From IMG/VR virus record IMGVR_UViG_651053023_000012, positions 1 through 14,727 of that record: a stretch of 14,727 bases of DNA. One strand, 5' to 3'. The stretch comes from a virus. Lineage: Duplodnaviria > Heunggongvirae > Uroviricota > Caudoviricetes. Shown piece by piece: positions 6,137 through 6,915 of this stretch. The notes under the pieces are model-generated. The model saw only the letters and a list, made by a program, of their open reading frames with translations. It searched no databases and was not told the origin of the DNA. The position numbers and the translations under genes are program-made. Positions within the stretch are counted from its first letter, which is position 1, and each line of letters opens with the position of its first letter.

Positions 6137-6163
6137 AAAAAAACCCGCCCGGAGGCGGGTTTT
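6137..6163 (-). terminator. Strong intrinsic terminator (bidirectional by sequence), positioned like tR' downstream of the Q-like gene.
   Basis: A7-CCCGCC-cgga-GGCGGG-T4 on the plus strand. On the minus strand this reads as a hairpin followed by a T7 run. Confidence 0.6.
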
Positions 6164-6207
6164 ATATTCTTTGCCATCGCGTACAAAATCAGCAAAATAT
6201 CAAATAT

Positions 6208-6242
6208 GCACGAAATATATGCCTTTTAATCTACTTTTGCAA
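6208..6242 (-). promoter_or_regulatory. Candidate sigma70 late promoter (PR'-like) directly downstream of the Q-like gene.
   Basis: Minus strand: -35 TTGCAA (6237-6242), 17-nt spacer, -10 TATATT (plus 6214-6219). It sits ~50-60 nt upstream of the terminator at 6144-6163. Confidence 0.35.
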
Positions 6243-6246
6243 TACT

Positions 6247-6915
6247 TTACAGTGAAAATGCCGCCTTTTGTTTTGAACGTGTTCTCATTACAAACAATAA
6301 AGCCTCACTATCCAGTCGTTGAAAAATGTGTTTCATTGCAACCCAGTGACGAGTAAATGTTTTGGACCAGTTTTTAGTTGTCACTCCCGCCAGTAATGCC
6401 AGCTCCTGGTATTCATAACCTTCCCCACCAAAAAGTTCTGCTTTTACTGCCTGCGCCGCCAGCCAGATTAATTTTTTCAGGCGTTCCTGCGTTTTCCCTG
6501 CAATTTTTCTGGTACCGGATTGAGTATTAAATTCATTCCACGCCCACTGTGTTATCGCGATCTGATATTCCCAACAAATACTCTCGCCGTAACACCACAA
6601 CAACCAGGCTTTATGATGCTCTTCAAGAGACAGCAAAGCCCGCCGCCATGATGATGTCGAAAACTCAACCGGGCTGACCAGGGCAATTGATGAGCCATTC
6701 GCCAGTGATTGTTTTCCCGGGATTGGTGGATTATCCCGCGTTATCATTTTTCCAGTCACTTCATCGCGGTACCGGATTTTTTTTCGCCTGTAACGCCCTG
6801 TATCGAACATGGCATTCTCCTGCCAGGCTTCAAGCTGACCTTTTGTTGCCCCACTCAAATCAGCGGTGGCGATAATGAGCTGCTCACGCACAAACTGTAA
6901 ATACTGGTTATTCAT
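6247..6915 (-). CDS. Putative late-gene antiterminator (Q-like); the assignment is mainly positional.
   Basis: Its ATG overlaps the rusA stop (ATGA). It is immediately followed by a candidate promoter and an intrinsic terminator. The C-terminal region has an HTH-like segment (YQELALLAGVTTKNWSKTFTRHWVAMK). I cannot confirm the family without a search. Confidence 0.5.
   Translation of the reverse strand: MNNQYLQFVREQLIIATADLSGATKGQLEAWQENAMFDTGRYRRKKIRYRDEVTGKMITRDNPPIPGKQSLANGSSIALVSPVEFSTSSWRRALLSLEEHHKAWLLWCYGESICWEYQIAITQWAWNEFNTQSGTRKIAGKTQERLKKLIWLAAQAVKAELFGGEGYEYQELALLAGVTTKNWSKTFTRHWVAMKHIFQRLDSEALLFVMRTRSKQKAAFSL

Follow-up and report, generated by a model that had tools for sequence, protein, structure and literature searches.

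Does the stretch of viral DNA analysed here (14,727 nt, hereafter "the window") carry a Q-dependent late-gene switch, and if so, of which type? A sequence-only reading had proposed, from gene position, that the ORF at 6247-6915 encodes a Q antiterminator, which would load at a qut site next to a late promoter and take RNA polymerase through the terminator tR' into the late genes. All elements of this Q/promoter/terminator module lie on the minus strand, and we found each of them where that reading had placed it. The Q ORF runs from an ATG at 6915-6913 to a TAA stop at 6249-6247 (6247..6915, minus strand) and encodes 222 aa. As proposed, it overlaps the end of rusA, a Holliday junction resolvase gene (6912..7277, minus strand; PF05866, E 1.2e-15; RusA in RefSeq): the Q start and the TGA stop of rusA share the sequence ATGA at 6915-6912, and a GGAG (6924-6921) lies 5 nt ahead of the ATG, forming a putative translational coupling region (6912..6924, minus strand). 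A 4-nt stop/start overlap at Q is also found in relatives, whether Q follows rusA, ylcG/orf45 or an HNH gene. Phage 82 has the same rus gene upstream and the same 4-nt overlap of the Q start on the preceding gene; unlike in phage 82, orf45/ylcG is absent between rusA and Q in the window, and the two genes abut directly.

The Q protein matches PF06323 over its full length (306 bits with a cut-off of 25, E 2e-91), residues 4-219 aligning with profile positions 1-216 of 220, and it matches PHROG 304, "anti-termination protein Q-like", with an E-value of 1e-107. Q proteins fall into three unrelated families, of which PF06323 corresponds to Q82 (PMC9388147, PMC7171158). We detected no Pfam match of the protein to the Q-lambda family (PF03589) or the Q21 family (PF06530). 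A translated search of phage records identified X92588, the phage 82 record, whose Q is 78% identical to the window Q over 221 aa without gaps (E 5e-128); identity is 75% to the "Q82-like" protein of phage 434 and 66% to AntQ of Gifsy-1. An NCBIfam search with the Q protein returned no match, and a PDB sequence search (2026 copy), with E-values up to 0.001 and up to 10, returned no Q structure. In pig E. coli strains, RefSeq labels exactly this region "bacteriophage antitermination protein Q". The gene order, ydfU-rusA-Q followed by tRNAs, holins and endolysin, places Q where the nin/rus region ends and before the lysis genes. An assignment that had been positional is now homology-based, with similarity to a Q family in both Pfam and PHROG. 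We conclude that, as judged by protein homology, Q is a member of the Q82 family and not of the lambda or 21 families; the Q82-type late-gene switch is known biology, and the gene is already annotated in public records.

The promoter attributed to this switch lies directly behind the gene. A -35 element, TTGCAA (6237..6242, minus strand), which is conserved and also present in phage 82's own sequence, begins 4 nt past the Q stop; it is followed by a 17-nt spacer, AAGTAGATTAAAAGGCA (6220..6236, minus strand), and by a -10 element, TATATT (6214..6219, minus strand), that is likewise conserved in relatives. In the pR' promoter of phage 82, the Q-binding element (QBE) is located between the -35 and -10 hexamers, and +25 is the native pause site (PMC4914094). 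Based on this published position and on the match to phage 82, we regard the spacer as the putative QBE. The 3' end of phage 82 Q carries TTGCAAAACTGGATTAA, equivalent to the -35 element plus the first 11 spacer bases, which aligns with the window; of these 11 bases, nine match phage 82 (AACTGGATTAA) and two differ, the start of the spacer reading AAGTAGATT in the window versus AACTGGATT in phage 82. Given the two differences, recognition of this spacer by its cognate Q is assumed. The spacer sequence of the window is also conserved in Gifsy-1, where it is non-coding. We took the A located 7 bases past the -10 element (6207, minus strand) as the putative transcription start, in register with the published 82 pR'. 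This assignment is supported by PhiR47_2 and the PPompW prophages, which have the closest relatives of 82 Q: numbered in this way, they too have GCC at +15-17, as published for 82, and a T at +25.

Counting from this start, the window has TG at +6/+7, TATTTT at +9-14, GCT at +15-17, GATTTT at +18-23 and T at +25 (6183). The extended -10-like sequence TGaTATTTT at +6..+14 (6194..6202, minus strand) is a candidate sigma70-dependent pause-inducing element, given its register and its likeness to the element of phage 82, which is closer to a -10 hexamer than the lambda element and includes an extended -10 (PMC5001585). In 82 pR', the element is followed by GCC at +15-17 and then by an AT-rich stretch, with the pause at +25/+26 and U at +25, and substitution of A at +15, +16 or +17 in each case approximately halves the pause half-life (PMC5001585). 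At the sequence level the window shows this arrangement too, from the extended -10-like element through the +15-17 triplet and the AT-rich stretch to the T at +25, placing the predicted pause site at 6182..6183 (minus strand; T and A, +25/+26). The X92588 record ends at the Q stop, and this comparison of the transcribed region draws on the description of 82 in PMC5001585 and on close relatives such as PhiR47_2. The discriminator-like triplet of the window (6191..6193, minus strand) is GCT, whereas phage 82 and most relatives have GCC; we counted the T in place of C at +17, as well as bases at +2 and +5 that are unlike those of most relatives, against a reading of the locus as a full Q82 switch. 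The qut site of the sequence-only reading is consistent with the published 82 pR' layout, and is probably better described as the spacer plus the -10-like element at +6..+14. Lambda and phage 21 follow the same logic of a constitutive late promoter, a promoter-proximal sigma70 pause, a DNA-bound Q and a terminator just downstream; however, lambda Q/pR'/qut/tR' (6S RNA) and phage 21 Q have no sequence similarity to the window Q, and the lambda pause is at +16/17 rather than at the +25 of 82-type promoters.

A strong hairpin with a run of seven Ts had been noted about 50 nt past the promoter, and folding confirmed it as an intrinsic terminator, tR' (6137..6163, minus strand; hairpin 6163-6140, T7 run 6143-6137). 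Its G+C core (6159-6144) closes on a TCCG loop, its 3' arm enters the T7 tract, and it lies 50 nt past the -10 element; the fold has a free energy of -17.9 kcal/mol, and none of 200 shuffled sequences was equally stable. The predicted pR'-tR' transcript is about 71 nt (6207..6137), with a U-rich 5' part and a U7 tail. Rfam searches of the promoter-terminator region gave only sub-threshold matches, to STnc370, to amino-acid operon leaders and to isrJ, all of them due to the hairpin, and we rejected membership of the short RNA in any of these families. We compared window positions 6140-6170 with positions 1500-1530 of L094 (phiP27): similarity to PPompW-type prophages ends at 6132 and similarity to the phiP27-type late region starts at 6162, and therefore the terminator hairpin is the segment shared at a mosaic junction. 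Further downstream, folding identified three more hairpins resembling intrinsic terminators (4409-4384, 4368-4346 and 4255-4234; together 4232..4409, minus strand), all upstream of the holin start at 4213. The first (4409-4390 plus T8, -12.4 kcal/mol) and the last (4255-4240 plus T6, -10.8 kcal/mol) are the terminators that had been proposed at 4383-4409 and 4231-4255 ahead of the lysis genes, and both are real; the middle one (4368-4351 plus T5, -13.8 kcal/mol) is additional.

Although the TTGCAA/TATATT pair is present behind Q as described, its bare consensus score is only 9/12, and 13 sites of that score occur in 5.5 kb versus 6.2 expected. Its significance comes from conservation and not from the match to consensus. 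We aligned 12 modules without gaps, anchored on the -35 element: the window, four E. coli phages or prophages, Gifsy-1, two Klebsiella phages, one Enterobacter and one Cronobacter phage, and two IMG/VR contigs, with Q proteins that are between 35% and 100% identical to that of the window. The -35 element, the -10 element and the TGATAT of the pause element are in exact register in the window and all 11 relatives. TTG.AAAA shows little or no variation, and the same is true of most of tAtAtTT and T.TGaTAt; within the -35 region, TTG and the following AA(AA) are invariant, and the fourth base is C in 11 of the 12 sequences. Across five divergent pairwise comparisons, the block from -35 to +25 is 62-80% identical, versus 38-58% for the third codon positions of Q. 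Every relative has a hairpin and T-run 45-75 nt downstream of +1, with stems and loops that differ in sequence. This shared register, the conservation of the block and the presence of a terminator in every relative indicate that the module is under selection as a unit. The block is retained where it is no longer coding, namely in the window, L076, L079, L082 and Gifsy-1; its retention in short alleles and outside the Q coding sequence in Gifsy-1 argues that the DNA element itself is likely to be selected. Hexamers scoring 9/12 in an AT-rich region rich in promoter-like sites could in principle be a chance occurrence, or the hairpin could be a terminator of the early operon that is unlinked to Q. 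However, TTGCAA-N16-18-TATAYT occurs once in the window when 0.01 occurrences are expected by chance, and the block aligns with phage 82, is in register across the 12 modules and is conserved beyond synonymous sites, which makes this explanation scarcely credible. The proposed arrangement of Q, late promoter and terminator appears to hold, being supported by the protein homology, the match to the 82 promoter and the register in relatives.

We consider the locus to be, very probably, the late-gene switch of a phage-82-type lambdoid prophage, in both identity and design; full activity of its 222-aa Q allele and of its GCT pause variant is less certain. Typical family members, like phage 82 Q, are 229 aa long. 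In these full-length forms, the -35 element is covered by the last seven codons (…KQSVAKVD) and translation stops inside the spacer, and therefore the gene and its target promoter overlap. In the window, a CAA-to-TAA change ends Q at 222 aa, seven codons short, and the ORF no longer overlaps the -35 element and spacer. This is why the promoter seems to lie "within 10 bp" of Q: the spacing proposed by the sequence-only reading is correct for the window (4 nt), but it is specific to this allele. We compared the overlap at window positions 6247-6270 with the corresponding sites near 3165-3190 of L002-L006. In phage 434, the strand opposite the end of Q is annotated with a CII-type box (TTGC-N6-TTGC) and with the -35 signal of paQ, overlapping the palindromic -35. 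At the position of this box the window has TTGC-N6-TTAC (6235-6252, plus strand), the changed base also being responsible for the early Q stop; the relevance of an antisense CII-type box here is doubtful, since the prophage has early regulators of the YdaS/YdaT type.

The missing seven residues count against a full Q82 switch, and together with GCT in place of GCC at +15-17 they would fit a decaying remnant, in which the truncated Q or the altered pause element is inactive and what is left is a constitutive RNA of about 71 nt, possibly regulatory. However, early stops have arisen on other backbones as CAG TAA, CTG TAA and TAG, and proteins of 221 or 222 aa make up clusters P0005 (472 members), P0006, P0023 and P0038, on divergent backbones; that such alleles are common argues for tolerance. 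Moreover, the tail that the window Q lacks is replaced by wholly unrelated sequence in AntQ, a protein that has been tested by expression, and the window ORF is otherwise intact, as is its start overlap. We infer from these comparisons that the short form of Q is tolerated.

The prophage around the switch bears on the same question. The window is more than 99% identical to a region of E. coli O141:H4 strain P13-6, except for two IS copies that are absent from the window: in P13-6, an IS2 lies within the region equivalent to window positions 1-3175, and another IS lies near the equivalent of 9541-9546. Owing to these extra copies, a single coordinate offset between the window and P13-6 holds only for 3064-9546. 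The early region looks intact, with a repressor-like gene, ydaS/ydaT-type regulators, replication genes, hok/sok, ydfU and rusA; apart from the repressor-like gene and one gene at 10157-10966, the early genes point towards Q. The hok/sok-type toxin-antitoxin locus (9377-9701, minus strand; 110 bits to Rfam sok, with a hokD ORF) belongs to the nin region and precedes ydfU-rusA-Q.

Past tR', the first gene that is intact encodes an AraC-family regulator (5008..5721, minus strand; PF00165, PF12833; "helix-turn-helix domain-containing protein" in RefSeq). A promoter-like site with a score of 10/12 lies just upstream of it, at 5784-5757, and hence this gene may also be expressed in the lysogen. Next come three tRNA genes (4672..4981, minus strand; ARAGORN, RefSeq), with a CAT anticodon, Thr-TGT and Gly-TCC. 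The CAT-anticodon tRNA (4906-4981, minus strand) is Met according to ARAGORN and Ile of the lysidine type according to RefSeq, and is probably the counterpart of the ileZ-like tRNA of Stx phages. The lysis cassette (3176..4213, minus strand; PF16931, PF05449, PF13539; RefSeq) consists of two holin genes (4213..3821 and 3831..3556) and an M15 peptidase endolysin gene (3553..3176). In a difference from phage 82, the late region behind tR' resembles that of phiP27: it shares with this Stx2e phage a frameshifted TrmB-like ORF, the tRNAs, two holins and the M15 endolysin. The differences are that phiP27 has a DNA methylase gene where the window has the AraC-family gene, and that the stx position is empty in the window. 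The interval from tRNA-Gly to the first holin (4213-4672, minus strand), which corresponds to the stx2e slot of phiP27, holds only the three terminator-like hairpins and short ORFs; we found no toxin genes in it.

Beyond the endolysin, window positions 1-3175 hold an ais-like heptose-phosphate phosphatase gene (plus strand), a DUF1441 fragment, and remnants of the terminase region and of tail-fibre genes. A strong Rfam match to the IS009 RNA family (230 bits; 41-239, minus strand) lies inside the region of a tail-fibre assembly gene. Head and tail genes are absent from the prophage, only fragments being left, and therefore it cannot make particles. The absence of these genes also fits the idea of a remnant: in a prophage without morphogenesis genes, selection for the switch may be relaxed. 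The remaining late targets of Q would be the AraC-family regulator, the three tRNAs and the lysis genes.

Gifsy-1, whose AntQ is 66% identical to the window Q, offers a view of what such a protein and promoter can do. AntQ expression interferes with termination and arrests growth both in Salmonella and in prophage-free E. coli, and Rho co-expression partly rescues the cells (PMC4825925). By analogy, the window Q could act mainly as a general antiterminator, toxic through its effect on host transcription, rather than as a site-specific late switch. The AntQ effects were, however, seen on induced expression from a plasmid, and the conserved cognate promoter, pause element and terminator beside Q point to site-specific loading as the selected function. 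We therefore consider a mainly general role very unlikely, noting that it and a role in the late switch are not mutually exclusive.

The promoter of Gifsy-1 is informative in a different way. In the window, rusA, Q and pR' are contiguous, whereas in Gifsy-1 an isrK/c4-orf45-anrP block separates Q from the isrJ promoter. We considered the region directly behind Gifsy-1 Q as the counterpart of pR' and rejected it, as it is the isrK/c4 module; the true counterpart is 850 nt further on, at isrJ. In L003 (Gifsy-1), Rfam places IsrJ at 4047-4121 (100 bits). Comparison of L003 positions 4015-4121 with window positions 6242-6137 showed that the sequence directly upstream of IsrJ is TTGCAA-aactggattaaaacggc-TATATT and that the RNA begins …AAAUCUGAUAU, in register with Q82-type pR' promoters, including the TGATAT, and with the window pR' itself. 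IsrJ has a promoter of its own (PMC2330248), and its expression in lysogens is high; neither PMC4825925 nor PMC2330248 describes it as a late-promoter transcript. The shared register makes IsrJ look like the short RNA that the AntQ switch produces between pR' and tR'.

The existence of an abundant RNA from a homologous promoter lends something to the idea that the window locus is a remnant that still makes a useful RNA, as do the U-rich 5' part and U7 tail of the predicted transcript and the observation that a short pR' transcript can bind Hfq and function as an sRNA (PMC7547250). On the other hand, the body of the window RNA is unlike IsrJ: with the covariance model for IsrJ (RF01393), window positions 6210-6139 scored 25.8 bits, below the gathering threshold of 37, and the two RNAs have in common only the 5' pause element and the shape of the terminator. 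The StxS RNA of Stx phages is likewise a short, constitutive transcript of an antiterminated late promoter in the lysogen (PMC7547250), but it has no sequence relation to the window RNA, nor is there an Rfam match. A regulatory role for the short RNA of the window is a possibility only. Weighing these observations together with the common occurrence of short Q alleles, we regard decay of the switch to an inactive, RNA-producing remnant as unlikely.

Our preferred reading, a late-gene switch of the phage 82 type, would work as follows. Q (6915..6247) would come last in the early-right operon, and the ATGA overlap probably couples its translation to that of rusA. The sigma70 promoter pR' is predicted to fire constitutively from about A6207. 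Sigma70 retained on the early elongation complex would then rebind TGaTATTTT at +6..+14 and, if the promoter behaves like the published 82 pR', RNA polymerase would pause at about +25 (T6183). From its site on the spacer that separates the -35 and -10 elements, Q would join the paused complex with the help of NusA and stay on it, as published work on 82Q suggests. The Q-modified polymerase would read through tR', the AraC-family gene, the three tRNA genes and the three further terminators to reach the holin and endolysin genes; in cells without Q, transcription would stop at tR' and an RNA of about 71 nt would be released.

The analysis confirms a textbook regulatory module and replaces a positional assignment with one based on homology. 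Its use for annotation lies in the family, now settled as Q82, and in coordinates to the single base for the promoter, the putative Q-binding spacer, the pause element and predicted pause site, and the terminator. For the family, it draws attention to an arrangement in which the last codons of full-length Q82-type genes double as the -35 element and as the start of the Q-binding element. A wider point is that the IsrJ promoter in Gifsy-1 shares the architecture of a Q82-type pR'. We put forward tentatively, as a proposal that is rather doubtful when taken as a whole, that the RNA at 6207..6137 acts as a trans-acting sRNA in this virion-less prophage and, more generally, that the Salmonella virulence-associated IsrJ is a Q82-type late-promoter transcript. 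If this were true, Q82-type switches would double as sRNA genes, like the pR' of Stx phages, which makes StxS.
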